Source: an uncultured delta proteobacterium
GTDB lineage: Bacteria > Myxococcota > Myxococcia > Myxococcales > Anaeromyxobacteraceae
Assembly: GCA_963766715.1 (NCBI GenBank)
Contig: CAVYBH010000011.1
Span: 64,001-128,000, forward strand
Direction: 5' to 3'
Length of the DNA stretch: 64,000 bases
Part shown: positions 4,304 through 58,373 of the stretch, one piece after another
Layout: each line of letters begins with the position of its first letter
How positions within the stretch are numbered: position 1 is the first letter of the stretch
The notes under the pieces: generated by a model
The model's database searches: none
Told to the model about the DNA's origin: nothing
What the model saw: the letters and a program-made list of their open reading frames with translations, nothing else
Translations under genes and position numbers: made by a program

Positions 4304-6316
4304 GTGAACTGGGACCTCTCGAGATACCTGGCGCTCTTCGTCTCCGAGTCGAAGGAGCACCTGGACGCGCTGGCGCAGGGGCTGGTGCGGCTGGAGCGCG
4401 CCGGCGCCGGCGGCGAGGACCCGGCCCCCCTCGTCGACGAGCTCTTCCGGCACGCACACAGCGTGAAGGGCATGGCGGCGGCCATGCAGCAGGAGGGCAT
4501 CGCCCACGTGGCCCACCGGGCCGAGGACGTGATCGGGGTGCTGCGGGCGCAGGGAGGCGTCCCCGGCCCCGACGTGGTGGACGTCCTGCTCGCCGCCACC
4601 GACGCCATCACCGCGATGGTGGAGCAGGCCGCCACCGGCACGACCCCGGCCGCCGACGAGGCCGTCTCCGCCCGCCTCGACGCGCAGGCGAGCCGCCTGA
4701 GGGGCATCGCTCCCGCCGAGCCGGCTTCCCCCGGCGCGGCGGGCGAGGCGCAGGCGAGCGCCGCGGACGCGGACGAGCCGCTCCTGGGCGAGGCGGCGCC
4801 CGCGCCCGCCCGGACCGCTGCGCCGCCGGCGCCCCCGCCTCCCGCCCCGCCGTCCGGGCGACGCCTCCGGATCGAGGTGGAGGTGTCGGCGTCGAGCCCG
4901 GTCCCCGCCATCCGCGGCTTCCTGGTGCTGAAGCGGCTCGGGGACACGGCCCGGATCGCCTCGTCGAGCCCGACCGTCGACGAGCTCCGCGCCGGCCGGA
5001 TGCCCGATCGGCGGCTCACCGCCGAGATCGAGACCTCGTCGACCCCGGAGGAGATCACCCGCACCCTCGAGCAGATCGCCGACCTGGCCCGGGTCGAGGT
5101 GCGCGAGGCGACCCCGGTCGCGCCGTCCGCGCCGGCGCCTCCCGAGCCGCCCGCCGAGCCGCCCCGCACGGTCCGGGTGCGCGCCGAGATGCTCGACGAC
5201 TTCCTCGACGTGGCCGGCGAGCTCCTCCTCGCCACGGCCCGGCTGCGGGAGGCCGGTCGCGCCATCCCGGAACCGCAGCGGCGCGAGCACGACGAGGGGG
5301 TGGACCGGCTCCAGGCCATCGCCAAGGACCTCCACCGGAAGGTGATGTCGGCCCGGATGACGCCGCTCACCGCCCTCTCGGCGCGGCTCCCGCGAGCCGC
5401 CCGCGACCTGGCGCGCCGCACCGGGAAGCAGGTCGACGTGGTGGTGACCGGCGCCGAGATCGAGGTGGACCGGGCGCTGCTCGACGAGATCGGCGATCCG
5501 CTGCTGCACCTGCTCCGGAACGCGGTGGACCACGGCATCGAGACCGCGGCCCAGCGCATCGCCTCCGGGAAGCGCCCCACCGGCCGCATCGAGGTGTCGG
5601 CGCGGCGCGATCGCGACCGGGTCATCCTCGAGGTCTCCGACGACGGCCGGGGCATGGACGCCGCGGCGCTGCGCCGGGCGGCGGTGGCGAACGGGGCCAT
5701 CGCGGCCGAGGCCGCCGCGAACCTCCCCGACGCCGACGTCCTCCTGCTCGCCTGCCTGCCCGGGGTGTCCACGGCCAGCCAGGTGACCGAGGTCTCCGGG
5801 CGCGGCGTGGGGATGGACGCGGTGAAGCGCAGCGCCGAGGCGCTGGGCGGCACCCTCTCCATCGAGAGCCAGCCCGGCAAGGGCACGAGGTTCACCCTGA
5901 GGCTCCCCCTCACGGTGGCCATGCAGCCGGTGCTCCTCGTCCGGGTGGGCACCGAGATCCTGGCCATCCCGGTCTCCAAGGTCCACGGGGCCGCCGAGGC
6001 CCGGCTGGAGCTCCTGGAGCGCGCCGGCGGGGCCCCCCAGCTCGCCTTCGGAGGCGGCCACGTGCCGGTGCACGACCTGGGCGTCCTGCTGGGCACCGGC
6101 CCGGCGCCGGGGGGCGGACGCCGCTCCGTGGTCGTCACGGATAGTGACACGGGCAGGGTGGGCCTGGCGGTCGACCAGCTGCTCGGGCAGCAGGAGGCGG
6201 TGCTGAAGCCGCTCCACGGCCCGCTCTCGCTGGTGCCCGGCCTCTCGGCGGTGACCGTCCTCGGGAACGGGCGCCCGGTCTTCGTGCTGGACGTCCCCCG
6301 GCTGGTGGCCGCATGA
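4304..6316 (+). CDS. cheA: Chemotaxis histidine kinase CheA (DifE-like)
   Basis: Hpt LFRHAHSVKGMAA, HLLRNAVDHGIE, SDDGRGMD, SGRGVGMDAV, C-terminal CheW domain. Confidence 0.95.
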   Translation: MNWDLSRYLALFVSESKEHLDALAQGLVRLERAGAGGEDPAPLVDELFRHAHSVKGMAAAMQQEGIAHVAHRAEDVIGVLRAQGGVPGPDVVDVLLAATDAITAMVEQAATGTTPAADEAVSARLDAQASRLRGIAPAEPASPGAAGEAQASAADADEPLLGEAAPAPARTAAPPAPPPPAPPSGRRLRIEVEVSASSPVPAIRGFLVLKRLGDTARIASSSPTVDELRAGRMPDRRLTAEIETSSTPEEITRTLEQIADLARVEVREATPVAPSAPAPPEPPAEPPRTVRVRAEMLDDFLDVAGELLLATARLREAGRAIPEPQRREHDEGVDRLQAIAKDLHRKVMSARMTPLTALSARLPRAARDLARRTGKQVDVVVTGAEIEVDRALLDEIGDPLLHLLRNAVDHGIETAAQRIASGKRPTGRIEVSARRDRDRVILEVSDDGRGMDAAALRRAAVANGAIAAEAAANLPDADVLLLACLPGVSTASQVTEVSGRGVGMDAVKRSAEALGGTLSIESQPGKGTRFTLRLPLTVAMQPVLLVRVGTEILAIPVSKVHGAAEARLELLERAGGAPQLAFGGGHVPVHDLGVLLGTGPAPGGGRRSVVVTDSDTGRVGLAVDQLLGQQEAVLKPLHGPLSLVPGLSAVTVLGNGRPVFVLDVPRLVAA

Positions 6317-6903
6317 GCGCCGCCGATCCGCGCCACGCGGCGGCCCTCGAGGCGCTCTGCGAGCTGGCCGCCGAGGGCGGGCGGGAGGCCGCCCGCACCG
6401 TCGGGAAGCTGGTGGGACGCACCGCCAGCATCGGGGAGGTGCAGCTGGTGATCGGTCCCGATCCGGCCGGCGTGGCGCGGCTGGTGGGGCGCCCCGACCT
6501 GGAGCTGGTGGCCGTCGCCATGGAGCTGCAGGACCCGGTGGGCGGCCGGCTCGTCCTCCTGGTGGCGGCCGACGAGGCGGAGCGGGTCTCGCAGACGCTC
6601 GTGCCCGACGCCGCCGCCGGCTCCCTCGACGCGGTGGGGGAGAGCGCGCTCGTCGAGGTGGGGAACATCGCGGGATCGGCCTTCGTGTCGGCGCTGGCCC
6701 GGAAGCTCCACCTGCGCCAGCTGCACGGCGTGCCCCGCCTGACGCGGGGCAACCCGCGGGAGTGCCTGGACGTCCTGGCCCCGGGCGCGTCCGGCCCGGC
6801 ACTGGGGGTGCGATTCGGGTGCCCGGAGGCGAGCGGGACCTTACTCCTCCTCCCGGACCCGGCCCGGCTCGACCGGCTCGCCGCAGCCCTGGAGGCAAGC
6901 TGA
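6313..6903 (+). CDS. cheC: CheC-like phosphatase (DifG-like), divergent
   Basis: [10 protein letters not shown] (ExxN) motif; ATGA overlap with cheA. Confidence 0.8.
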
Positions 6904-7646
6904 TGGACGAGAAGGCGCTGCGGCAGCTGCTGGCCCGCCTCCGGCGGGGCGACGCCGGCGTCGACGAGGTGGTGGGCGCGCTCAAGGGCGCGCCCTTCGA
7001 GGACCTGGGCGGCTTCGCCACCCTCGACCACCACCGGACGCTGCGCGTGGGGATGCCCGAGGTGGTGCTCGCCGAGCGCAAGACCGCGGCGCAGGTCGCG
7101 GCCATCGCCCGCAAGCTCGCGGCGCGGGGCCCGCTCCTCGTCACCCGGCTCGACCCCGACAAGGCCGGACCGGCGCGCCGCGCCGTCCGCGGGTCCCGCT
7201 ACGACCCGGTCTCCCGCACGCTGTCCCGGGGGCGCATGGACCTGCCGGTGCGCGGACCGGTGGCGGTCTGCTGCGCCGGCACGAGCGACATCCCGGTGTG
7301 CGAGGAGGCGGTCGTCACGCTCGACGTGATGGGCGTCGACGCCATCCGGGTCTACGACGTCGGCGTGGCCGGCCTGCACCGGCTGCTCGCCCGCCGCGGC
7401 GACCTGGACCGGGCGGTGGCGGTGATCGTGGCGGCCGGCATGGAGGGGGCGCTCCCCAGCGTGGTGGGCGGCCTGGTGGGCAAGCCGGTGGTGGGGCTCC
7501 CGACCTCGGTCGGGTACGGGGCCAGCCTGGGCGGCCTGGCGCCGCTCTTCACCATGCTCAACTCCTGCGCGCCGAACGTGTCGGTCGTGAACGTCGACAA
7601 CGGCTTCGGCGCCGGGTTCGTGGCCGGGCTCATCGCCCGGCAGTGA
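6903..7646 (+). CDS. larB: Nickel-pincer cofactor biosynthesis protein LarB (AIR carboxylase-like)
   Basis: [82 protein letters not shown]. Confidence 0.93.
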
Positions 7647-7657
7647 AGGCGGAGGGG

Positions 7658-8830
7658 ATGGCGAAGATCCTGCTGCTCGAGCCGGTCGGCGGAATCGCCG
7701 GGGACATGTTCCTCGCGGCGGCCCTCGACCTGGGCGTGGACCGGGCCGCGCTCGACGGCGCGCTCGCCACGCTCGGCGTCCCGGGCTTCCGGCTGCTCGC
7801 CACCCGGGCCGAGTCGGGCGGGGTGCGGGGAACGCACGTCGACGTGCTGGTGCCGGAGGGAGAGACCCGGGCGCGCCACCTCCCGGAGATCCTCGCCCTC
7901 GTCGACGGGAGCGGCCTGTCCCCGCGGTCGCGCGCCGCCGCCCGTGCGGTCTTCGAGCGGATCGGCCGCGCCGAGGCCCGGGTCCACGGCGTCCCCGTCG
8001 AGGAGGTCCACTTCCACGAGGTGGGCGCGCTCGACTCGATCGTCGACGTCTGCGGCGCCGCGGCGGCGATGGAGCTCCTGGGCTGGCCCCGGGTGCTCTG
8101 CGCGCCGCCCGAGCTGGGCCAGGGCTTCGTCTCCACCGCCCACGGGCGCCTGCCCGTGCCGCCGCCGGCGGTGCTCGAGATCCTGAAGGGGATCCCGGTG
8201 CGGCCGGGCGGTCCGCCCGGGGAGGCGGTGACCCCGACCGGCGCCGCGCTCCTCGCCGAGCTGGCGCAGGTGGCCGATCCGGCCACGTTCCCGGCGTTCG
8301 CGCCGGAGCGGATCGGCTACGGCGTGGGAACCGCGCGCTGGCCCGACCGGCCCAACGTGCTGCGCATGACGCTCGGGCGGGAGCTGGCCGGCGGCGCGCT
8401 CTACGTGCTCGAGGCGAACCTCGACGACTGTCCGGGCCAGCTCGTCGCCCGGGCCATCGAGGCCGCGCTGGCCGCCGGGGCGCTCGACGCCTGGGCCGCC
8501 CCGCTCACCATGAAGAAGGGGCGCCCCGGGCTGCTCCTCGGCGCGCTGGCGACCGCCGACCGGCGCGACGCGGTGGCGAGGGTCCTGCTCGACGAGACCA
8601 CCACGCTCGGCGTCCGCTTCCACGCCGTCGACCGCATCGAGCTCGACCGCGAGCTCGTCCCGGTCGCGACGCCCTACGGCGAGGTGCGCGTGAAGGTGGC
8701 GCGCCGCGGCGAGGCCACGGTGGGGGCGCACCCGGAGTACGAGGACTGCCTGGCCCGGGCGCGCGAGCACGGCGTCCCGGTCAAGGAAGTGCTGGCGGCT
8801 GCCGCGGCCGCCTTCCGAGGGGGCCGGTGA
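7658..8830 (+). CDS. larC: Nickel-pincer cofactor nickel-insertion protein LarC
   Basis: [17 protein letters not shown]...[58 protein letters not shown]. Confidence 0.93.
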
Positions 8831-12481: not shown

Positions 12482-14946
<2,465 letters not shown>

Positions 14947-14950
<4 letters not shown>

Positions 14951-15657
14951 GCGAGCGCGCCGGGAACCCCGCCGAGAGCCTCCGTGCCCTCCTCGGCGGG
15001 GCCCAGGGCGCGCTGAAGATCTTCCCGCTCCCGGAGGTGGTCGTCTTCCCGGGGGCGCCCGCGCCCTTCCACGTCTTCGAGCCCCGCTACCGGGCCATGG
15101 CCGCCGACGCCCTCCACGGCGACCGGCTGCTGGCCGTGGCCACGCTCCGCTCCCCGGAGCAGGGCTCACCTGGAGCGGGCTCCGGTCTTCCCCGTCGCCG
15201 GGGCCGGCTTCATCGAGGCCGACGAGGCGCTCGCCGACGGCCGCTTCAACATCCTGCTCCGGGGCGTGGCCCGGGTGCGGCTGCTCGAGGAGCTCACCGG
15301 GACCGGCAAGCCCTACCGGGAGTTCCGGGTCGAGATCCTCGACGACGTGTATCCGCCGGGGGGCCCGCCGCCCTGGCCGGCGAGGTCACCACGCTGGAGC
15401 GCTTCGTGCTCGAGCTGGCCCGGCGCTCGCCCGAGGACAGCGGCACGCGCGACCTGGCCGAGGCCGTGGCCCGGATGCGGGTTCCGGGGCGGGTCTGCGA
15501 CGCGGTGGCGGCGGCGCTGGTCTCCGACACGGCGTCGAGGATCGCGCTCCTCGAGGAGCCGGACGTGTCCCGGCGGCTCGCCCGCCTGGTGCAGGAGATG
15601 GCCTCGCTGCTCGTCCAGCTGCCCGCGCCGGACGGCATGCCGGTGCCCAGCGCCTGA
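14947..15657 (+). CDS. Lon substrate-binding (Lon N-terminal) domain protein; indels near 15165 and 15365
   Basis: IFPLPEVVVFPG...FHVFEPRYRAM, DGRFNILLRGVARVRL; ATGA overlap with hppA. Confidence 0.82.
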
Positions 15658-47331: not shown

Positions 47332-48756
<1,425 letters not shown>

Positions 48757-48803
48757 TGCGGAGTGGTCTCCTGATGGGGCGGAGGGTGGACGAGGCCCGG
48801 AGT

Positions 48804-48819
48804 AGCACGGCGTGTGCCA
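48804..48819 (-). promoter_or_regulatory. Sigma-54 (-24/-12) promoter of glnA
   Basis: Minus strand TGGCACACGCCGTGCT with exact GG-N10-GC spacing, ~50 nt upstream of the glnA start. Confidence 0.8.
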
Positions 48820-48869
48820 CCCGGATCTACTCCAATCGACCCGAGGATCGGAGGTGGCTTTCGTGGGGC

Positions 48870-48886
48870 TGCCCGATAAACAGGCA
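48870..48886. promoter_or_regulatory. Putative NtrC-type enhancer site
   Basis: TGCCCGATAAACAGGCA, a 17-bp TGC-N11-GCA dyad upstream of the sigma-54 promoter; similar to the site at 58384. Confidence 0.6.
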
Positions 48887-49030
48887 ATGACTGCACGGGA
48901 ACCGGGCTCCCCGGCGGGCCGCGGCGCCCGAATGCCCCCATCGGGGGGTCCGTGCTTCCCGGGACGCCCGGCGCCGTGCCGAGCGTGAGTCGCGGCAGTA
49001 GGTAGGCACGCCCGCGCCCGAGCAATCGGG

Positions 49031-49057
49031 TGTCTCATTCTGCAAACCCGGCGTGTC
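49031..49057 (+). promoter_or_regulatory. Putative ECF-sigma autoregulatory promoter, copy 1
   Basis: TGTCTCAT-N13-CGTGTC, 18 nt upstream of the sigma start; same motif and spacing at 53659 and 55326. Confidence 0.72.
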
Positions 49058-49075
49058 ACGAGGACAGGAGGCGTT

Positions 49076-49624
49076 TTGGAAGACCCGAGGAGCCAGGTGA
49101 GCCGGCTCTACAGGGAGCTTGGCCCGGTGGTGTACCGCCGGTGCCTTCGACTGCTCGGCGACCGGGCAGCGGCCGAGGACGCCACGCAGGAGGTCTTCGT
49201 GAAGCTGCTGCGCGACATGGGTCGGCTCCAGGATCGGGAAACCGTGCTCCCCTGGATCTTCCGGGTGGCGACGAACCACTGCCTGAACGTCCGTCGGGAC
49301 GCGCGAGGGCGCGGGCAGGACGGGCTCGCCGAGGACCTCGAGGTCCTGCCCGACACCCGCGGCGACGGTCCGGAGGCCTACCCGGATCGAGCGCTGGCGC
49401 AGTCGGTGCTGGCTCGCTTCGACGCCGAGACCCAGGCCGTGGCCGTGGGCGTCTTCGTGGACGGGATGGAGCACGAGGAGGTCGCGGCGGTCCTCGGCAT
49501 CTCCCGGCGCACGGTCTCGCGGAAGCTCTCGAGGTTCCTCGAGAACGCGCGAAAGTACCTGGCCCGGACCGACGCGGGACGGACGGAGCGGGCGAAGGAG
49601 CCGGACGAGGCGGTGCTGCCGTGA
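49076..49624 (+). CDS. ECF RNA polymerase sigma factor
   Basis: [58 protein letters not shown] before TTG. Confidence 0.92.
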
Positions 49625-50361
49625 CCCGCTGCGCGTCCGAGCTGGCCCTCGAGCGCCACCTGCTCGATCCCCGGCATTCCCGGATCGACCTGCACCTCCG
49701 ATCCTGCCCGGCGTGCCGGGCCCGCCTCGCCCGGATGGAGCGGGAGGGCGAGGGGTTCCACCGGTACGTCCACCCGCGCACCATCGACCGGATCCTGGCG
49801 GCGCAGGCGGCCCGCAAGCCCGCGTGGCGGAGATGGGCCACCTTGCTGCTGCCGGCCGGGGGGCTCGCCGCGGCGGCGACGGCCGCGCTTCTCCTCGTCT
49901 CCCCGATCCCGCCCGCCGGCTACACGGGCGAGAAGGGAACGCCGCTGGCGATGCGGGTCTGGGTCGGGGACGCCGACGGCGCCCGCGAGGTGTCCGACGG
50001 TGGCGCGGTTCCGCTGGGTTCCCGCCTGCGGTTCCGGGTCGCGGCCGGTCGCCCCTGCCGGCTCTGGCTCGTCTCGGCGGATGCCCAGGGAGACGTCTCC
50101 CGGCTCTACCCGGCGCAGGGAGATGCCGCGGTCGTGCAGGGAGGCGCCACGCTGCCGGGCGGGGTCGCGCTCGACGACGTGGCCGGGCCCGAGCGGCTCT
50201 TCGCAATCTGCAGCCCGGACCCCGTTCCCCTCGAGAAGGTCGAGCAGGCGATCCGGCGCGCCGCCCCGGGCGGTGCCGAGGCGATCCGGCGCCCGGTGCG
50301 GCTCGACGGCCTCCCCTCCGGGACCACCCAGGCCACGCTCCTCGTCGAGAAGGTCCCTTGA
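49621..50361 (+). CDS. Anti-sigma factor: zinc-binding N-terminus, one TM, extracytoplasmic DUF4384-like domain
   Basis: HLRSCPAC (HxxxCxxC), TM LLLPAGGLAAAATAALLLV, GSRLRFRV...DAQGDVSRLYP...LDDVAGPERLFAI; GTGA overlap with the sigma gene. Confidence 0.8.
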   Translation: MTRCASELALERHLLDPRHSRIDLHLRSCPACRARLARMEREGEGFHRYVHPRTIDRILAAQAARKPAWRRWATLLLPAGGLAAAATAALLLVSPIPPAGYTGEKGTPLAMRVWVGDADGAREVSDGGAVPLGSRLRFRVAAGRPCRLWLVSADAQGDVSRLYPAQGDAAVVQGGATLPGGVALDDVAGPERLFAICSPDPVPLEKVEQAIRRAAPGGAEAIRRPVRLDGLPSGTTQATLLVEKVP

Positions 50362-51872
50362 GCCGGAGGAGCACGCTCGCCGCGCTGCTGCTCGTGGCCG
50401 CCCTCGCGCCGGCCCCGGCCGCCGCGGCGGCGCGCTTCGCCATCGTCGTCGGCAACGACGCCGGGACGACCGGACGCCCGCGGCTGTACTTCGCCGAGAA
50501 GGACGCCGACCGCGTCCGCGCCGCGCTCCTGGAGCTCGGCGACTTCTCCGACGATCGCGTCGTCGTGCTCAAGGGCCGGAGCGCCTCGGCGTTCCGGGAG
50601 GCCTTCGCCGCCACCGACGCGCGCATGCAGCTGGCTCGCCGCTCGGGGGAGCGCACGCTCCTCGTCGTCTACTTCTCCGGTCACGCCGGCTCGGTGGGGC
50701 TCGAGCTCGGGAACGACACGCTCTCGTACGACGAGCTGCGCAAGCTCACCGCCGCCTCCCAGGCCGACACCAAGGTCGTCGTCCTGGACGCATGCGAGTC
50801 GGGCGGCCTCACCCAGGTGAAGAGCGCCAGGCCGCTGTCCGCCGTCGACTTCGCCCTGCCCAACGACGAGAGCGCCCGGGGGACGGCCTTCATCACCTCG
50901 GCCGCGGTGGGAGAGGCGGCCCAGGAGTCGGCGGCCCTGGGCGGCAGCTTCTTCACCCATCACCTCGACGTGGGGCTGCGCGGGGCGGCCGACGCCGACG
51001 GGGACGGCCAGGTCACGCTGGCCGAGGCCTTCCGCTACACCTCGGCCCGCACGGTGGCCCAGACGGCCGGGACGCAGAGCGGCATCCAGCACCCCACCTA
51101 CGAGTTCCGCATGTCCGGCCGAGGCGACGTGGTCCTCGCCGACCTGCGCAAGGCCGAGTCGAAGCTGGTCCTCCCCGCCGATCCCGGGTCGACCTACTTC
51201 CTTCGCGGCCCGAAGGGCGTGCTCACCGAGGTTCCGGCCCAGGCGGCGCCGCTCGCGCTGGCCCTTCCGGCGGGGCGGTACGCGGTGGAACGGCGCTCCC
51301 CGGACGGGCGCGCGACGGGCGAGGTCACGCTGGAGAAGGGCGCGACCCGCGACCTCCCGCTCCTCTCGCCCACCCGGTACGAGGTGGCGCGCGCCAAGGG
51401 AGGGCCCAAGCCGAACCTGGCCTTCGTCGAGGGCGGGGTGGCCTGGTTCGACATGAAGGGGCTGGGCGTCGCACCGACGGTCCGGGCCGGCGTCCGCAAG
51501 GAGTTCGGGCCGGTCGGGCTCCGGGTCGCCTTCGACTGGGCCGGAAAGAACGTCTCGGGGGGCACGCTCGACTACCAGTTCCAGTACTTCGGCGGCTCGG
51601 TGGCGCTGCTCTGGCCGCTCACCGAGAGCGCCTTCTTCCTGGAGCTCGGGCCCCAGGTCACCGGCGGGTTCGCCAACCAGACGTTCCCGTCGAGCCCGTC
51701 CTTCTCCTCGGGCATCTTCGGCGCGGGTGCGGCGCTGATGGCCTCGATTCCCCTCGGCCCGGTGCGCCTCGGCCTCGACGTCAGCGCGGCCGCCCAGCTC
51801 TACAAGCTGAACGACAAGACCGTCGTCCGGCCGGGCGGCTCGGCCGGCCTGCTCCTGCTCTTCGGGTTCTAG
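50358..51872 (+). CDS. Exported caspase-like (peptidase C14) protein with putative C-terminal outer-membrane beta-barrel
   Basis: Signal peptide, RFAIVVGN, YFSGHA (His), VLDACESG (Cys), AQES...GSFFT; C-terminal amphipathic beta-strands ending ...LLLLFGF. Confidence 0.85.
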   Translation: MSRRSTLAALLLVAALAPAPAAAAARFAIVVGNDAGTTGRPRLYFAEKDADRVRAALLELGDFSDDRVVVLKGRSASAFREAFAATDARMQLARRSGERTLLVVYFSGHAGSVGLELGNDTLSYDELRKLTAASQADTKVVVLDACESGGLTQVKSARPLSAVDFALPNDESARGTAFITSAAVGEAAQESAALGGSFFTHHLDVGLRGAADADGDGQVTLAEAFRYTSARTVAQTAGTQSGIQHPTYEFRMSGRGDVVLADLRKAESKLVLPADPGSTYFLRGPKGVLTEVPAQAAPLALALPAGRYAVERRSPDGRATGEVTLEKGATRDLPLLSPTRYEVARAKGGPKPNLAFVEGGVAWFDMKGLGVAPTVRAGVRKEFGPVGLRVAFDWAGKNVSGGTLDYQFQYFGGSVALLWPLTESAFFLELGPQVTGGFANQTFPSSPSFSSGIFGAGAALMASIPLGPVRLGLDVSAAAQLYKLNDKTVVRPGGSAGLLLLFGF

Positions 51873-51873
51873 G

Positions 51874-53647
51874 ATGCGCAAGCTCCCCCACGCCCTCGTC
51901 GCCCTCCTCGCCCTGTCGGCGCTGGCGTCCACGGCCTGCAGCAAGACGCTCGTCGACGAGGACGGGGCGAACCTCGTCCCCGTCGCCTGCAACTGCCTGG
52001 CGCCCGCGGGCGGGAGCCCGGTGTGCAACCCCGACGGCAGCTGCGACTACGTCTGCCAGGGCGACCTCCTCAAGTGCGGGGGCGGGTGCGTGACCTGCTC
52101 CGCTCCGGCCAACGCCAGCCCGGCCTGCGTGCAGGCCACCTGCGGCTTCACCTGCAACGCGCCGGCGCGGCTCTGCGAGGGCGCAGCGGCCACCTGCCAG
52201 GTGGAGAGCGACCTCTCCTGCGGCGCCAGCTGCGCGCCATGCCCCGGTCCGTCCACCGGCCCGGGGCGTGGGGTCTGCCAGCCCGGTCCGTCCGTGGGGA
52301 CCGGCACCTGCTCCGTCGCCTGCGACGCGGGCACCCACGGCTGTGGCGGCTCCTGCTTCGCCGACGACGACGCGGCCCACTGCGGCGCGACCTGCCAGGT
52401 GTGCACCGCGCCGGTGAACGCCTCCCCAATCTGCGCCGCCGGCGGCTGCGCGTTCGCCTGCAACCCGGGCTGGATGCGCTGCGGCGACGGATGCTGCCTC
52501 GCCTCCTCGGTCGCCGCGGGCGGCCAGTTCGGCTGCGCCCTCCTCGACGACGGCCGCGTCCGGTGCTGGGGCGCCAACGACCGCGGCCAGCTGGGAGACG
52601 GATCGACGACCTTCCGCCCGGTCCCGGTCGACGTGACGGGGCTCCCGGCGGCGCCGTCCCGCGCCGTCGCGGTCGCCGCGGGCTGGGCCCACGCCTGCGC
52701 CGTGATCGCGCCGGGCGGCCAGGTCTAGTGCTGGGGCGACAACACCACGGGTGAACTGGGCGCGGGCGCCCCGGGCAGCTTCAGCCCCACGGCGATCCCG
52801 GTCGCCGGGATCGCCGGCGTGCCCGCCCCGGCCTCCTCCGTCGTCGCCGCCGCTGATCGCCGCCGGTGGAGGCGTGGCCGGGACGCCCGCCGCCGCCTTC
52901 GGGCACACCTGTGCGGTCGGCTCGGGCGGCCTCGCCTGCTGGGGCGCCAACGGGTCCGGGCAGCTCGGAGACGGGACCACCACGCAGAGCAGCAGCCCGC
53001 GAGTCGTGTCGGGGCTCGGCGTCGTCACCTCCGTGACGGCCGGCGAGCAGCACACCTGCGCCGTGTCCGGCGGCGCCCTGCGCTGCTGGGGCGCGAACGG
53101 CGCGGGGCAGCTCGGCGACGGCAGCTCGACCTCGAGGACCACGCCGGTGGCGGTGAGCACCGCGGCGTTCCCCGCCGGGGCCACGGCCAGCCTCGCCGCC
53201 GCGGGCCGGACCTCCTCCTGCGCCATCGTCGGGACGCCGGCCGCGCTCTTCTGCTGGGGCGACAACGGGGAGGGACAGGTGACCGGCAACGCGCCGCCTC
53301 CCGCCACCCAGCCCACGCCGCTCGCGCCCGCGCTCGGCGGCAGCTTCGTCCCGACGTTCGTCGCGGCGGGCCGGGCCCACGTCTGCGCGCTCAAGCCCGA
53401 GATGAAGTGCTTCGGCGCCAACGGGCAGAGCCAGCTGACCGGGCCGCCCGCGGCGGTGGGCAAGGTGGACGTGACGCTCACCGGAGGCAGCGGCATCGCG
53501 CTCACCGTGGCCGCCGGCGGCGACCACACCTGCGCGCTCCTCACCGACGGCTCCGTGCAGTGCTGGGGCGCGAACGACCGGGGCCAGACCGGCACGGGCC
53601 TTCCGGCCGCGTCGGTCGTCACGCCCGCGTTCGTGTCCGGACGCTGA
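51874..53647 (+). CDS. Lipoprotein with Cys-rich region and RCC1-like repeats; in-frame TAG at 52726-52728 and indel near 52850
   Basis: Lipobox STAC; repeated CxAPxNASPxC Cys-rich units; [48 protein letters not shown] repeats. Confidence 0.82.
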
Positions 53648-53658
53648 TCCAAACCATC

Positions 53659-53685
53659 TGTCCCGTGCCGCGGAGTCGCCGTGTC
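53659..53685 (+). promoter_or_regulatory. Putative ECF-sigma promoter, copy 2
   Basis: TGTCCCGT-N13-CGTGTC in the intergenic gap before ATG 53733. Confidence 0.72.
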
Positions 53686-53732
53686 TTCCCGTCAGACAGC
53701 GGGCGGGCACTTCTCCAGCGACGGAGCGGCAC

Positions 53733-55298
53733 ATGGACAGCGCGAAGCGGAACCTGGCGGTCGGCGTGGCGATGGCAGTCTTCCTCGTGGCCTGCGGGGG
53801 CACGACCGGCGGGTCGTCCGCCGGAGGTGCCGTGCGGCCCGACCGGCCCCACCGGACCCACCGGGCCCACCGGACCGACCGGGCCCACCGGGCCGACCGG
53901 ATCCACCGGTCCCACCGGACCGACCGGGTCCGACGGGCCCCACCGGGTTCGCCGTCACGGCCGCCGCACGCGGCGCCATCACGGGCCTCTCGCCCCTGAC
54001 GGTGAATGGCGTCCGCTTCGACACCTCCGGGGCCGAGGTCCGCGTCGAGGGGGAGATCCGGGGCGAGGCCGAGCTGCGCAAGGGGCAGGTGGTCCACGTC
54101 CGGGGCGAGATCCACGGCCGCGACGGCCGCGCGGCCACCATCTCCTTCGACGACGACCTGCGCGGGAAGGTGGACGACCGCGGCGGCAGCCGCATGCACG
54201 TGGGCGGACACGAGATCGAGATCGAGGACGCGACGGAGTTCGAGGACGAGACCCGCCGGGAGGACTCGATCCAGCCCGGCGAGCGCGTCCGGGTCTCCGG
54301 GCACCGGACGTCGTCCGGCGCCATCCGCGCCACCCGCATCGAGAAGGAGGCGGGCAGCCAGGAGGACTTCGAGGTGAAGGGCTACGTGGCGAGCCTGGCC
54401 GCCGCCGCCGTTCCGCCGTCCTTCGCGCTCCGCATGACTCCCGCCGGCGCCGACGTCTACCAGGTGACGCTCGCTGCCGGCGCGACGCTCCCCGCCGGCG
54501 TGAAGGACGGCTCCTTCGTCGAGGTGAGGTCGGCGGCGAGGCCGGTGGCCGGCGCGCTGATCGCCACCGCCGTCGCGCTCGAGGACGCGAGCACCGGCGC
54601 GGAGAACGACGAGGCCGAGGTCGAGGGGATCGTCACCTCCGGCGACTCGACCGCCTTCTCCATCGGCGCCCAGCCGGTCACGACGTCGGCCGCGACGCGC
54701 TGGGAGAACGGGCTGCCCGAGGATCTCCTCCCCGGGGCGAAGGTCGAGGCGGAGGGGACGCTCGACGCCCAGGGCGTGCTCGTCGGCGACGAAGGTCTCC
54801 TTCCGGGAGAACGTCCGGCTGCAGGGAGCCCCCGCGGGCGCGGTCGGGACGGCGCCCGGCGTCGGCACCTTCCAGGTCCTGGGCCTCACGGTCCGGGTGG
54901 ACGGGCTCACGGAGTGGAAGTCGTCGGGCAAGGGCGGCGGCATCTCCCTGTCGAACCTGGGCACGTCCCCGGTCCAGGTCCGGGGCTACCGCGCCCGGAA
55001 CGGAACCGACGTCATCGCCACCCGGGTCGAGTCGCGGAGCGACGTCCGGATCATCCTCCAGGGCCCGGTGTCCTCGAAGGACGCCGCGGCGGGCACGCTG
55101 GCCATCCTGGGTCTCACCGTCCGGTCGAGCGGCGGCACGGAGTTCCGCGACGCGACCGACGGCGCCCTCTCCGCCTCGGCCTTCTTCGACGCGGTGACGG
55201 TGGACGGGACGGTCGTGAAGGCGCGCGGCAGGGACGCCACCGCCCTCTCCGGGACCACGCTCGCCGCCGAGGAAGTGGAGATCGAGGGCAGCCGCTGA
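53733..55298 (+). CDS. DUF5666-like repeat lipoprotein with collagen-like linker; indels near 53833, 53929 and 54785
   Basis: Lipobox LVAC; repeated small beta domains ([16 protein letters not shown]...IRATRIE, EVEGIVT...KVEAEG, LQGPV). Confidence 0.75.
53836..53944 (+). repeat. 9-bp tandem repeat encoding about 12 Gly-Pro-Thr triplets (one Gly-Ser-Thr)
   Basis: GGN CCN ACN units with synonymous third-position variation. Confidence 0.9.
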
Positions 55299-55325
55299 GG
55301 AAATCGGGCGAGGCGGGATCTCTCG

Positions 55326-55352
55326 TGTCCCGTCCCGCCCGCCCTCCGTGTC
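55326..55352 (+). promoter_or_regulatory. Putative ECF-sigma promoter, copy 3
   Basis: TGTCCCGT-N13-CGTGTC in the intergenic gap before ATG 55395. Confidence 0.72.
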
Positions 55353-55394
55353 AAGGACCGTAGAGCCTCGAGGAATCCATCCAGGAGAGTCGCC

Positions 55395-56864
55395 ATGACC
55401 CGTTTCCACCGCCGCCGCCCGCTCGCCTCAGCCAGATTCGCCCCCCCCCTGGCTGCGGCCCTCCTTCTCGCCGCCTGCGGAGGGTCGACCTCGACTCCCG
55501 CCGGTGGCGGGGGAGGGGGCGGCGGCGGTGGAGTCACCGCGGCGGCGACCAGCAAGGGCGTGGTCACGGCCACCGGGAACCTCACGGTGAACGGCATCCG
55601 CTTCGACACCTCGACGGCGCAGATCCGCATCGACGACAACCCGGGGCGCCCCGAGTCGGAGCTCAAGGTCGGGATGGTCGTGAAGGTGAAGGGGTCGAAG
55701 GACGACGCGGCGGGCACGGGAAAGGCCACGGAGGTCGAGGCCCACCACGTGGTCCGAGGCAAAGTGGACGACAAGGGAGGCGGCATCCTCCGCGTCGGCG
55801 GCCACGAGGTGGAGATCGAGCACGGCACCGAGTTCGAGAACCACGCCTCCGGCCTCGACTCGATCTCGGTGGGCGAGCGGGTCCGCGTGCACGGCCACCC
55901 GACGGCCACGGGCCACATCCGCGCCACCCGCGTCGAGAAGGAGGCCGGAACCTCGGAGGACTTCGAGGTGAAGGGCTTCGTGTCCGACCTCGCGGCCGCC
56001 GCTGGCACCTTCACCCTCCAGGTCTCGCCCGACGCAGCCTCGAGCTACGCCGTGACCATGGCCTCCGGCGTCGCCGTCCCGGCCGCCGTCGTGAACGGCT
56101 CCTACGTCGAGGTCCGCGCGGCCTCTGCGCCGGTGGCCGGGGCGCTCACCGCCACCGCGGTCGTCCTCGAGGACGCCAGCCTCGGCGCCGCCCAGGCCGA
56201 GGTCGAGGTGGAGGGGCTGGTGACCAGCGGATCCTCCGCCCAGTTCGTGGTCGAGGGGCAGACCGTCGCCACCTCGGGCACCACCCGCTGGGAAAACGGG
56301 CTGCCGGCCGACCTCGCTCCAGGAGTGAAGGTGGAGGCCGAGGGCAGGCTCGACGCCGCCGGCGTCCTCCAGGCCACCAAGGTCTCCTTCCGCGCCAACG
56401 TCCGCCTGCAGGGGCCGGTCTCGAACGTGGACGTGGCGAGCGGCAGCTTCCAGGTCCTCGGGCTCACCGTGCGCACCGACCCGTGGACCGAGTGGAAGTC
56501 CTCGGGCGGCGGCGGGTCGCTCGGCCTGGCCACCCTCGGCTCCGGCCCGGTCGAGGTCCGCGGCGTTCCCGGGCAGGCCGGCGAGATCCTCGCGACGCGC
56601 GTGGAGGCCACGAACGACTCCCGCCTCTACCTCCAGGGACCGGTGACGTCGAAGGACGCCGCGGCCGGTACGCTCGTCATCCTGGGAATCACCGTCCAGA
56701 CCGGCTCGTCGACCGAGTTCAGCGGCATCGCCGGGCCGTCGACGAGCTCCGCATTCTTCGCGGAGGTGGTCGCGGGCAAGACGGTGGTCAAGGTGCGCAG
56801 CCGCGATCCGCTGTCCGGGACCACGCTCACCGCGGATCAGGCAGAGGTCGAAGGGAGCCGATGA
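55395..56864 (+). CDS. DUF5666-like repeat lipoprotein, paralogue of the preceding gene, with a poly-Gly linker
   Basis: Intact ORF; lipobox LAAC; collinear with the upstream gene ([57 protein letters not shown]-terminal EGSR). Confidence 0.8.
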   Translation: MTRFHRRRPLASARFAPPLAAALLLAACGGSTSTPAGGGGGGGGGGVTAAATSKGVVTATGNLTVNGIRFDTSTAQIRIDDNPGRPESELKVGMVVKVKGSKDDAAGTGKATEVEAHHVVRGKVDDKGGGILRVGGHEVEIEHGTEFENHASGLDSISVGERVRVHGHPTATGHIRATRVEKEAGTSEDFEVKGFVSDLAAAAGTFTLQVSPDAASSYAVTMASGVAVPAAVVNGSYVEVRAASAPVAGALTATAVVLEDASLGAAQAEVEVEGLVTSGSSAQFVVEGQTVATSGTTRWENGLPADLAPGVKVEAEGRLDAAGVLQATKVSFRANVRLQGPVSNVDVASGSFQVLGLTVRTDPWTEWKSSGGGGSLGLATLGSGPVEVRGVPGQAGEILATRVEATNDSRLYLQGPVTSKDAAAGTLVILGITVQTGSSTEFSGIAGPSTSSAFFAEVVAGKTVVKVRSRDPLSGTTLTADQAEVEGSR

Positions 56865-56878
56865 TCGGCTCCCTCGGG

Positions 56879-56912
56879 CGCGTCCCCGGATACCCCTCCC
56901 TCCGGGGACGCG
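56879..56912. terminator. Hairpin between convergent genes, probable bidirectional terminator
   Basis: Perfect 12-bp inverted repeat CGCGTCCCCGGA / TCCGGGGACGCG with a 10-nt loop; no clear U-tract. Confidence 0.6.
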
Positions 56913-56918
56913 TCAGCT

Positions 56919-58373
56919 TCACTCCTTCGGCTTCAGGCCCAGCGCCCGCATCCGCTCCCGCAGCGTGTTGCGGTTCATGCCCAGCAGCTCGGCCGCCTTG
57001 AGCTGGTTCCCGTGGGTGCGGGCCATGGCGGAGGCGATGAGCGGGGCCTCCAAGGCGGCGAGCGCCGCCTGGTAGCGTCCGCCGTCCGGCTCCGGGCCGT
57101 CGAGGAATCCATCCACGAATCCGGTGAGCCCCTTCTCCCGCGCGGCGCCGGCCGGCAGCAGCGGGGCCAGGTCCCGGGCGGTGATGCGGTTGCCGGGCAG
57201 GGAGAGCAGCACCCGCTGGATCACGTTCTGGAGCTCGCGGACGTTGCCGGGCCAGGAGTGCGCGAGGAGCAGCGGCTCGGCGTCGCGCGCGAGGGTGACC
57301 GGTCGGCCGCGAAGCTGCTCGCCGTACTTGGCGGCGAAGTGCCGGGCGAGCAGGATCACGTCGTGGTCCCGCTCCCGCAGGGGAGGCAGGCGGATGGGAA
57401 CCACGGCCAGCCGGTAGAAGAGATCGCGGCGGAAGCGCCCCTCCTCCACCGAGCGCCCCAGGTCGGCATTGGTCGCGGCCACGATGCGGACGTCCACCGG
57501 GAGGGGGCGCGATCCGCCCACCCGGTCGATCTCCCGCTCCTGCAGGACGCGAAGCAGCTTGGCCTGGAGCTCGACGGGCATCTCGCCGATCTCGTCGAGG
57601 AAGAGCGTGCCGCCGCTCGCCAGCTCGAACTTGCCGGGGCGACGCTCGGCGGCGCCGGTGAACGCGCCGCGCTCGTGGCCGTAGAGCTCGCTCTCCATGA
57701 GGTCGCGCGGGATGGCGGCCATGTTCACGGTGATGAACGGGCCCCGGGCGCGGGGGGAGTTGGCGTGGACGGCGCGGGCCACGAGCTCCTTGCCGGTCCC
57801 GCTCTCGCCCATCAGCGTGACCGTCATCTCCGTGCGGGCCACGCGGCCGATCTCCTTGAAGACCTCCACCATCGCGGGCGAACGGCCGATGAGGGAGTCG
57901 ATCGGGGCTCCGTCGCGCTTCCGATCCGGCTCGGGGCTCCGTGCCGGGGCGCGCTCCGAGCGCTCGTCGGCCTCGATCTCCGGGCCGATGGCGAGGTCGC
58001 GGACGATTCGCTCGACGCGCGCCAGGTCGAAGGGCTTGCCCAGGTAGTCGGCGGCGCCGCGCTTCATGGCCTCGACCGCCGACCGCATGGTGTCCTCGGC
58101 GGTCATCACCACCACGAAGGGCGAGTCGGGGCGGCCGGCCAGCTCCCCGAGCAGGGTGAAGCCGTCGTCTCCGGGGAGGCGGACGTCGAGCAGCACGAGC
58201 CCGATGCCGCCGTGGCGGCCGGTGCCGTGCCTCCCGAGCTCGACGCGCGCCTCCTCGGCGCTGCCGGCCTCGAGGTGGGGGGCGCCGACCCGCTCGCAGG
58301 TGCGGGCCAGGACGAAACGGACGGAGGGCTCGTCGTCGACGATCAGGACCTTGCGCATCGCCGTCTCGTCCAT
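56919..58373 (-). CDS. ntrC: Sigma-54-dependent response regulator, NtrC-like
   Basis: Receiver [45 protein letters not shown], Fis-type HTH; downstream of glnB and the kinase. Confidence 0.88.

Follow-up and report, generated by a model that had tools for sequence, protein, structure and literature searches.

A likely envelope-signalling operon of an uncultured delta proteobacterium, encoding an extracytoplasmic function sigma factor, a candidate anti-sigma factor and a caspase-like protease predicted at the outer membrane

In the sigma-E system of Escherichia coli, the single-pass anti-sigma factor RseA is removed by a periplasmic site-1 cut, made by DegS, and then by the M50 site-2 protease RseP, DegS being an inner-membrane PDZ serine protease that is not encoded with the sigma factor. 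In the FecA/FecR/FecI system, an outer-membrane protein, an inner-membrane anti-sigma factor or regulator and a sigma factor of the extracytoplasmic function (ECF) group are co-encoded and pass signals from one side of the envelope to the other. A window of 64,000 nt from the genome of an uncultured delta proteobacterium was analyzed here, in which a unit read on the + strand (49031..56864) encodes an ECF sigma factor, a candidate anti-sigma factor, a caspase-like protease with a predicted outer-membrane barrel (hereafter the caspase) and three lipoproteins. This unit is likely one copy of a conserved envelope-signalling operon, and the caspase may make the site-1 cut in the anti-sigma factor and thereby release the sigma factor, a reading to which we give somewhat less than an even chance. 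It would share with the E. coli system the single-pass anti-sigma factor and its two-step removal, the proposed site-1 enzyme being here a co-encoded outer-membrane cysteine protease; from the Fec system it would differ in having a small, protease-bearing barrel as its outer-membrane partner. Neither a TonB-dependent transducer nor a FecR domain was found by Pfam in the six products, and the unit is thus not of the FecIR type.

Two described systems join caspase-family proteases to ECF sigma factors. The DdvS/DdvA pair of Myxococcus xanthus resembles the unit in combining an ECF sigma factor, a single-pass anti-sigma factor of the CHCC/zinc-binding anti-sigma (ZAS) kind and a periplasmic caspase-family His-Cys module, and in the proposed order of events, since DdvA is proposed to cleave itself through its periplasmic caspase-family CHAT domain, as the site-1 step, before RseP, which is present in M. 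xanthus, acts (PMC11506125). In DdvA, TPR-CHAT is fused to the anti-sigma factor and would act on itself in a dimer, whereas here the C14 protease is a separate protein with a barrel, the anti-sigma factor (246 aa) has only a DUF4384-like domain and so is not of the DdvA type, a lipoprotein gene is added, and the predicted regulon consists of lipoproteins instead of the defence systems of DdvS. In craspase (Cas7-11/Csx29 cutting Csx30, which is bound to Csx31 and RpoE), a caspase-family protease likewise cuts a sigma-binding protein and changes ECF sigma activity, yet craspase is cytoplasmic, RNA-guided and CRISPR-linked, while the locus has no Cas genes and all that lies beyond the sigma-binding part is predicted to be periplasmic. 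Some Csx30 proteins, substrates of Csx29 with ECF sigma control, end in DUF4384, a domain frequently fused to protease domains (bioRxiv 10.1101/2022.08.17.504292) and also found accompanying cyanobacterial orthocaspases (PMC7475262); the Csx30/DUF4384 link and the DdvA precedent speak for the site-1 role proposed for the caspase. Orthocaspases and other bacterial C14 proteases share with the window's protein the C14 fold, the His-Cys dyad, an expected cleavage after Lys/Arg and, occasionally, DUF4384; in the consulted literature they are described without a defined physiological substrate or sigma partner, and a C-terminal sandwich-plus-barrel form does not appear there (PMC6426788, PMC7475262).

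Full-text literature searches found no publication on a triad of sigma factor, DUF4384 anti-sigma factor and C14 caspase, in keeping with the initial annotation of this DNA, which knew of no functional characterisation. In the parts consulted of the ECF re-classification paper, the main text has no mention of caspase, C14 or RCC1, and one supplement mentions DUF4384 only for ECF25 anti-sigma factors. If the reading given above holds, the unit would be a form of regulated proteolysis of an ECF anti-sigma factor undescribed in the literature searched, a proposition that is partly supported. Bacterial caspase relatives are abundant, and next to nothing is known of their substrates or roles. In this unit, the gene for the protease overlaps that for a candidate substrate, which has a candidate cleavage site, and the read-out is predicted to be a defined promoter ahead of the DUF5666 genes. 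The unit would then represent a fourth way to fire an ECF sigma factor across the envelope, beside DegS-type, FecA-type and self-cleaving anti-sigma systems, and would connect a periplasmic system with the logic by which craspase and DdvA work. On a more specific and doubtful reading, set out below with the mechanism, it would also provide the first defined physiological substrate for bacterial caspase relatives outside CRISPR systems, and such four-gene units would form a signalling device of general kind, spread over thousands of bacteria.

Six + strand genes were picked out in this region (G+C ~73%) by codon-position G+C plus Pfam. The features are as follows:

49031..49057, + strand: predicted ECF-type promoter of the sigma operon, TGTCTC-N15-CGTGTC (motif comparison, relatives' loci)
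49076..49624, + strand: ECF sigma factor, 182 aa, TTG start (Pfam Sigma70_r2 and r4, TIGR02937, orthologue starts)
49621..50361, + strand: single-pass anti-sigma factor, 246 aa (weak DUF4384 match, alignment A2)
50358..51872, + strand: exported C14 caspase-like protease, 504 aa (Pfam, alignment A1, AlphaFold model, Foldseek)
51874..53647, + strand: Cys-rich RCC1 beta-propeller lipoprotein gene, interrupted (Pfam RCC1 repeats)
53659..53685, + strand: promoter motif again (second copy), TGTCCC-N15-CGTGTC, 12 nt past the RCC1 stop
53733..55298, + strand: DUF5666 lipoprotein A, read in three frames (Pfam, frame translations, intact orthologues)
53842..53946, + strand: 9-bp tandem repeat, 11.6 copies, coding the Gly-Pro-Thr linker of DUF5666-A (repeat search, frame-1 translation)
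55326..55352, + strand: promoter motif once more (third copy), TGTCCC-N15-CGTGTC, 42 nt ahead of the DUF5666-B ATG
55395..56864, + strand: DUF5666 lipoprotein B, 489 aa, intact (Pfam DUF5666 at 162 bits, structure model, Foldseek)

The first four genes are tightly joined: the sigma stop overlaps the GTG start of the anti-sigma gene in GTGA (49621-49624), the anti-sigma stop overlaps the TTG start of the caspase gene in TTGA (50358-50361), and one base separates the caspase stop (TAG, 51870-51872) from the RCC1 ATG at 51874, all three junctions being as the initial annotation had claimed. That annotation started the unit at 49031, which is correct for the first base of the promoter motif and not for the sigma gene, whose start is TTG 49076, corresponding to GTG at the same residue in five same-genus orthologues. 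Its six genes were all recovered, the frame breaks in the RCC1 and DUF5666-A genes having gone unmentioned, and the compartments that it assigned to the first four products (sigma factor in the cytoplasm, anti-sigma factor in the inner membrane, protease with barrel, lipoprotein) are supported by Pfam, the anti-sigma alignment, the caspase model and the Foldseek matches of the barrel.

The caspase matched Peptidase_C14 (PF00656) with 35 bits (cut-off 21.4). In its AlphaFold model (predicted local distance difference test, pLDDT, 80.8), a signal peptide is followed by a caspase fold (residues 25-235), a beta-sandwich (259-332) and an eight-stranded barrel (353-503; strands at pLDDT ~90), and the C-terminal residue is Phe. 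Foldseek matched the caspase domain to caspases, MALT1, the yeast metacaspase Yca1, Geobacter GSU0716 (PDB 3bij) and gingipain, and the barrel to OmpA, Ail, NspA and OmpX (TM-score to target ~0.6). Family hidden Markov model (HMM), fold and His-Cys dyad thus place the protein in C14 of clan CD, with catalytic activity predicted, and the eight antiparallel strands and C-terminal aromatic residue place the barrel in the OmpA/OmpX/Ail type, with membrane location predicted. Pfam gave no barrel match on this protein, and NCBIfam gave only a sub-threshold match to 'caspase, EACC1-associated type' (58 bits vs 140); of 150 cluster representatives of the caspase, 57 end in F, 32 in L and 17 in W. His109 (codon 50682-50684) and Cys146 (50793-50795, the codon that the initial annotation had named as catalytic) were invariant in alignment A1 (20/20), and were kept in 148 and 150 of the 150 representatives, respectively. 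Asp144, two residues ahead of the catalytic Cys, was present in 150/150, and the ninth residue past that Cys (Lys155, codon 50820-50822) was Lys in 145 and Arg in the other 5, followed by Gly in 148; the Lys155 segment is modelled as a loop with pLDDT < 50. An EF-hand-like DADGDG loop is also present.

In small barrels of the outer membrane, N- and C-terminus alike point into the periplasm, so that the protease domain is predicted to hang under the outer membrane, tethered on its periplasmic side. A flexible loop past the catalytic Cys is the usual place of self-processing in this clan, and an Asp at the position equivalent to Asp144 lines the S1 pocket in Lys/Arg-specific metacaspases and MALT1. 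Orthocaspases cut after positively charged residues (PMC6426788), and this specificity, together with the conservation of Asp144, leads us to expect Lys/Arg cleavage by the window's caspase.

The sigma factor matched Sigma70_r2 (56.2 bits) and r4_2 (26.7 bits) in Pfam, and TIGR02937 with 76.6 bits (cut-off 42.9). With regions 2 and 4 only and these family-level matches it belongs to the ECF sigma factors (sigma-70 group 4); no specific NCBIfam subgroup scored above its cut-off. Two further sigma genes, 72-73% identical, were found in the same genome on contig C8 (615972-616448 and 597480-597951, both on the minus strand); neither a DUF4384 anti-sigma gene nor a caspase gene was detected beside them by tblastn or HMM search.

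The anti-sigma factor has a cytoplasmic zinc motif (Cys4...His25-x3-Cys29-x2-Cys32), a hydrophobic helix (~73-93) and, after it, a conserved segment Pro-Pro-x-Asp-Tyr101-x-Gly103-x-Lys105-Gly106, followed by a periplasmic DUF4384-like domain with two invariant cysteines, Cys146 and Cys197 (alignment A2). Among 120 homologues from a profile search, all at least 43% identical, His25, Cys29, Cys32, Gly103, Gly106, Cys146 and Cys197 were found in every one, Lys105 in 118 (one Arg and one Met in the others) and Cys4 in 109, with His in 10. H-x3-C-x2-C with a further upstream ligand is the ZAS signature; Pfam zf-HC2 was not reported at E <= 0.01, and NCBIfam had no match for the anti-sigma, RCC1 or DUF5666 proteins. 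Given the zinc motif and the gene overlap, which are the two grounds for it, this ZAS-type protein likely binds and inhibits its sigma factor.

The triad formed by these three genes was widely conserved. Of the 401 genomes sampled in the phylum, 324 gave a match to the caspase protein at E <= 1e-10 (a tally that takes in one unpublished genome, G196), many matches covering the caspase domain only. With the caspase profile, 2,684 of 1.84 billion cluster representatives were matched at E <= 1e-30. Sigma, anti-sigma and caspase genes stood in the same order and on the same strand in all of the 20 loci with the best full-length caspase matches (close loci, 48-86% identity); in 20 distant loci (caspase identity 35-47%), scanned with local HMMs, sigma factor, DUF4384 and caspase occurred together in 18 (not found in L070 and L073), and the barrel HMM matched in 12. 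The order was therefore kept in 38/40 loci overall, and the co-occurrence for which the initial annotation had suggested a survey is confirmed. Homologue names place the window's clade in Anaeromyxobacteraceae.

The fourth position behaved otherwise. An RCC1 gene adjoined the triad in 19/20 close loci (18 downstream, one divergent from the sigma gene) and in none of the distant ones (one match at the edge of L063), and DUF5666 genes were present in 9/20 close and 0/20 distant loci. In the distant loci, the gene right after the caspase had a lipoprotein signal in 16/20, as judged by eye, and belonged to other families (beta-helix, Kelch propeller, weak ZU5-like, MopE-like motif), many without a Pfam match. 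Because the triad is kept in distant loci while the family of the fourth gene varies, the core of the unit, as judged from gene content, is the triad, with an exchangeable lipoprotein in fourth place, much as the initial annotation had supposed in calling this gene variable. The fourth-gene lipoproteins of the distant loci L056, L060, L063, L065 and L066 have in common an N-terminal 'IGxxGGTL...V..P.GAL' with weak ZU5 matches (19 bits, sub-cut-off), and this segment may be an element for docking or self-cleavage that they share.

A second copy of the triad was found in the same genome on contig C2 (10859-15333), with sigma gene at 12617-13090, anti-sigma gene at 13102-13829 and caspase gene at 13844-15333. 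Its caspase is ~70% identical and frameshifted. The RCC1 gene is placed divergently, on the minus strand, DUF5666 genes are absent from this copy of the module, and a variant motif, TGGCCC-N16-GTGTT, lies ahead of its sigma gene at C2:12490.

The promoter motif that the initial annotation had described for the sigma and DUF5666 genes was found three times in the window, as TGTC[CT]C-N16-GTGTC at 49031, 53659 and 55326. No other strict copy occurs in the genome (4.2 Mb), and all three lie at this locus; since the same two blocks at other spacer lengths gave 0-3 genome matches each, the significance of the motif lies in its placement and not in its copy number. The -10 block of the sigma promoter ends 8 nt ahead of an AGGAGG ribosome site. 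In the 20 close loci, a relaxed form (TGTCCC-N16/17-GTGTC) gave 28 matches in 323.5 kb on both strands, of which 17 lay before the sigma gene, 6 before DUF5666 genes and 5 elsewhere. The motif stood 47-225 nt before the sigma gene in 17/20 loci (none in L048, L052 and L053) and before DUF5666 genes in 6 of the 9 loci that have one, and four of the five remaining matches preceded genes for exported proteins or lipoproteins. These four genes were YceI (64 bits), two DUF4382-like genes (17.7 and 18.8 bits vs a cut-off of 25) and a cupredoxin-like gene (21.5 bits vs 27). No copy of the motif stands ahead of the RCC1 gene, which in this clade lies one base past the caspase stop. The blocks are constant across genera while the spacer sequence is unrelated, i.e. 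a phylogenetic footprint, and the motif is predicted to mark an autoregulated ECF promoter, with the two DUF5666 genes as further targets at this locus. A relaxed match at C2:10887 (minus strand), behind the C2 RCC1 paralogue and facing an opposite-strand gene, was taken as chance. No sigma-70 promoters or terminators beyond chance were detected in 48700-57100.

This regulon bears on whether the unit could be a phage-sensing defence switch of the DdvS/DdvA kind, as might be thought from DdvA, which joins a ZAS anti-sigma factor to a periplasmic caspase-family domain in a myxobacterium (PMC11506125). Such a role has a very slim chance, given that the predicted targets are lipoproteins and not CBASS or CRISPR genes, that no TPR-CHAT domain was found by Pfam in the six products, and that PADLOC detected no known anti-phage defence system among them, giving one marginal match (E 4e-4) on the helix-turn-helix of the sigma factor.

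As for the lipoproteins, RCC1, RCC1_2 and RLD matches in both halves of the RCC1 gene identify its product as an RCC1-repeat propeller, with a lipobox read by eye. Both DUF5666 proteins matched PF18914 (B with 162 bits in five stretches, the middle open reading frame (ORF) of A with 100 bits), and they are 57-58% identical, so that the two paralogous lipoprotein genes of the initial annotation stand. DUF5666-A consists of a lipobox, a Gly-Pro-Thr linker and tandem small barrels, and DUF5666-B of a lipobox (LLAAC), a Gly-rich disordered linker and a chain of OB-like small beta-barrels (model pLDDT 81.6), which Foldseek matched to ribosomal S1, Unr cold-shock domains and CusF. The linker of A (53842-53946), between lipid anchor and first domain, is collagen-like and is kept, with varying length, in DUF5666-A orthologues; paralogue B has a poly-Gly run instead. 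Where the flexible linker meets the first barrel there is a Lys/Arg-Gly pair (Lys53-Gly54 region of DUF5666-B, 55551-55556), which resembles the Lys-Gly sites of anti-sigma factor and caspase; in alignment A3 this junction had [KR] in 20/25 rows and Gly in 25/25, and [KR]G[AVSL][IVL][TS] was matched by 80/120 DUF5666 homologues.

The proposed mechanism would run as follows. The periplasmic caspase domain, under the outer membrane, would be Lys/Arg-specific and would first cut itself at Lys155; it would then cut the anti-sigma factor, most likely after Lys105 just outside the membrane, as the site-1 step. These candidate sites were chosen because the Lys-Gly of the anti-sigma factor is near-invariant and matches the Lys-Gly in the flexible loop of the caspase. 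An RseP-type M50 protease would complete the removal of the anti-sigma factor, a plausible step since M50 proteases are encoded in the genome (5 matches, of which 3 strong), and the freed sigma factor would transcribe its own operon and the two DUF5666 genes from TGTCCC-N16-GTGTC promoters. The variable lipoprotein, here the RCC1 propeller, would set what the unit responds to, its variability being the one ground for reading it as the sensor, and the caspase is read as the trigger because the overlapping-gene triad is strict while the outputs vary. A more specific proposal is that protease and substrate, the one tethered to the outer and the other to the inner membrane, together form a proteolytic switch responding to the condition of the envelope or to a cue that the exchangeable lipoprotein has captured, the anti-sigma factor being cut at the conserved Lys-Gly and the sigma factor thereby freed; this is possible and, in our judgement, doubtful.

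Several observations weigh against a site-1 role of the caspase. Lys105 lies ~12 residues from the inner membrane and the caspase is predicted to be on a short outer-membrane tether (caspase and sandwich domains join the barrel through only ~20 residues), so that access to Lys105 would require the periplasm to be narrow or the protease to be set free. The conservation of Lys-Gly was measured in fairly close relatives and could be structural. At the corresponding place in the window's own caspase, Ser156 follows Lys155 (50820-50825) where 148/150 representatives have Gly, which could be a real substitution or a further assembly error. The anti-sigma factor matched DUF4384 (PF14326) with 24.6 bits, under the gathering cut-off of 27; many of its close homologues carry PF14326 in precomputed annotation, or the NCBI name DUF4384. 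DUF4384 was found on none of the 17 longer close caspase homologues (0/17), nor was a longer protein carrying this DUF4384 domain found, which is weak evidence. Binding and cleavage of the anti-sigma factor by the caspase are predictions from sequence, and caspase and lipoprotein sit in the autoregulated operon, hence are also outputs.

This last point leads to the main rival, which is possible and rather unlikely: caspase and lipoprotein would be effectors, DUF4384 would sense the cue in another way, and the induced protease would process proteins of the envelope, among them the lipoproteins of the RCC1 and DUF5666 kinds, which it might cut loose from their lipid anchors. The autoregulated promoter stands ahead of all four genes, the geometry favours substrates on the outer-membrane side, and the Lys/Arg-Gly at the junction of DUF5666 linker and first domain would offer a site; however, the basic residue there is only partly conserved, and the triad is constant while the outputs vary, DUF5666 genes being confined to close loci and YceI, DUF4382-like or cupredoxin-like genes standing behind the motif elsewhere. 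The published link of DUF4384 with caspase-type proteases (bioRxiv 10.1101/2022.08.17.504292; PMC7475262) also argues for the site-1 role over that of an effector.

Regulation by binding offers a further model, known from RseB, which binds RseA. By this analogy, the caspase would dock on DUF4384 and shield or hold the anti-sigma factor, with the lipoprotein modulating the contact. The strict adjacency and translational coupling of the three genes would suit such a complex, but the dyad and the Asp before the Cys are kept in 148-150 of the 150 representatives, which argues for catalysis, and the objection from outer- and inner-membrane geometry applies equally; we consider it highly unlikely. 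Cleavage of the anti-sigma factor by the caspase is retained as the preferred reading.

Two genes of the unit are broken as assembled. In the RCC1 gene, an in-frame TAG (52726-52728, GGQV-stop-CWGDN) is followed by a +1 frameshift near 52840 (frame 1 to 2). DUF5666-A changes frame near 53829-53835, 53932 and 54781-54783: frame 0 encodes the lipobox and again the C-terminus, frame 1 the Gly-Pro-Thr linker and frame 2 the body. That these are true pseudogenes in this strain, in a decaying unit, might be argued from one nonsense codon and four frameshifts inside 2.1 kb, none of the break sites being a homopolymer run. Against this, three unrelated genes in the first 11 kb of the window (AIRS/AIRS_C, CheW and HisKA/HATPase_c) are split between frames alike, as are the paralogous anti-sigma and caspase genes on contig C2, and all four frameshifts share one direction. 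Moreover, related-strain Logan contigs from metagenome runs (X3 and X4) lack the extra base at all four sites, with one base fewer at 52840 and 53932 (X3), at 54783 (X3 and X4) and, net, at 53829-53835 (X3); a contig 99% identical to the window has one base fewer at 54781, near-identical (98%) cover being available at 1/5 break sites. In relatives (L034 and L035; 580 and 591 codons), RCC1 is a single ORF that reads His or Trp in place of the TAG, and DUF5666 orthologues are intact with the same GPT linker. Since relatives lack the breaks and other genes of the window are frameshifted too, the interruptions are very probably assembly errors, and decay of the unit is distinctly unlikely. Programmed frameshifting or recoding was rejected as their source because other, unrelated genes in the window show such splits too.

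The split genes were an AIR-synthase-related gene (937-2181/1346-1927), cheW (3369-3857/3517-3807) and a PAS histidine kinase gene (8831-11173/10311-10649). The assembly (4.2 Mb, 18 contigs, 84.6% complete) thus seems to hold about one indel per few kb, so that pseudogene calls in this genome need read support.

The unit is flanked on the opposite strand, as read from translations only, by a glutamine synthetase gene upstream (47332-48750, minus strand) and a sigma-54 activator (NtrC-like) gene downstream (56919-58373, minus strand), neither of which is part of it. Elsewhere in the window, a LarB-type AIR-carboxylase-like domain followed by a LarC-type nickel-insertion gene (426 bits) at 6255-8827, and an AIRS-family gene at 937-1927, are ordinary cofactor genes unrelated to the signalling unit.

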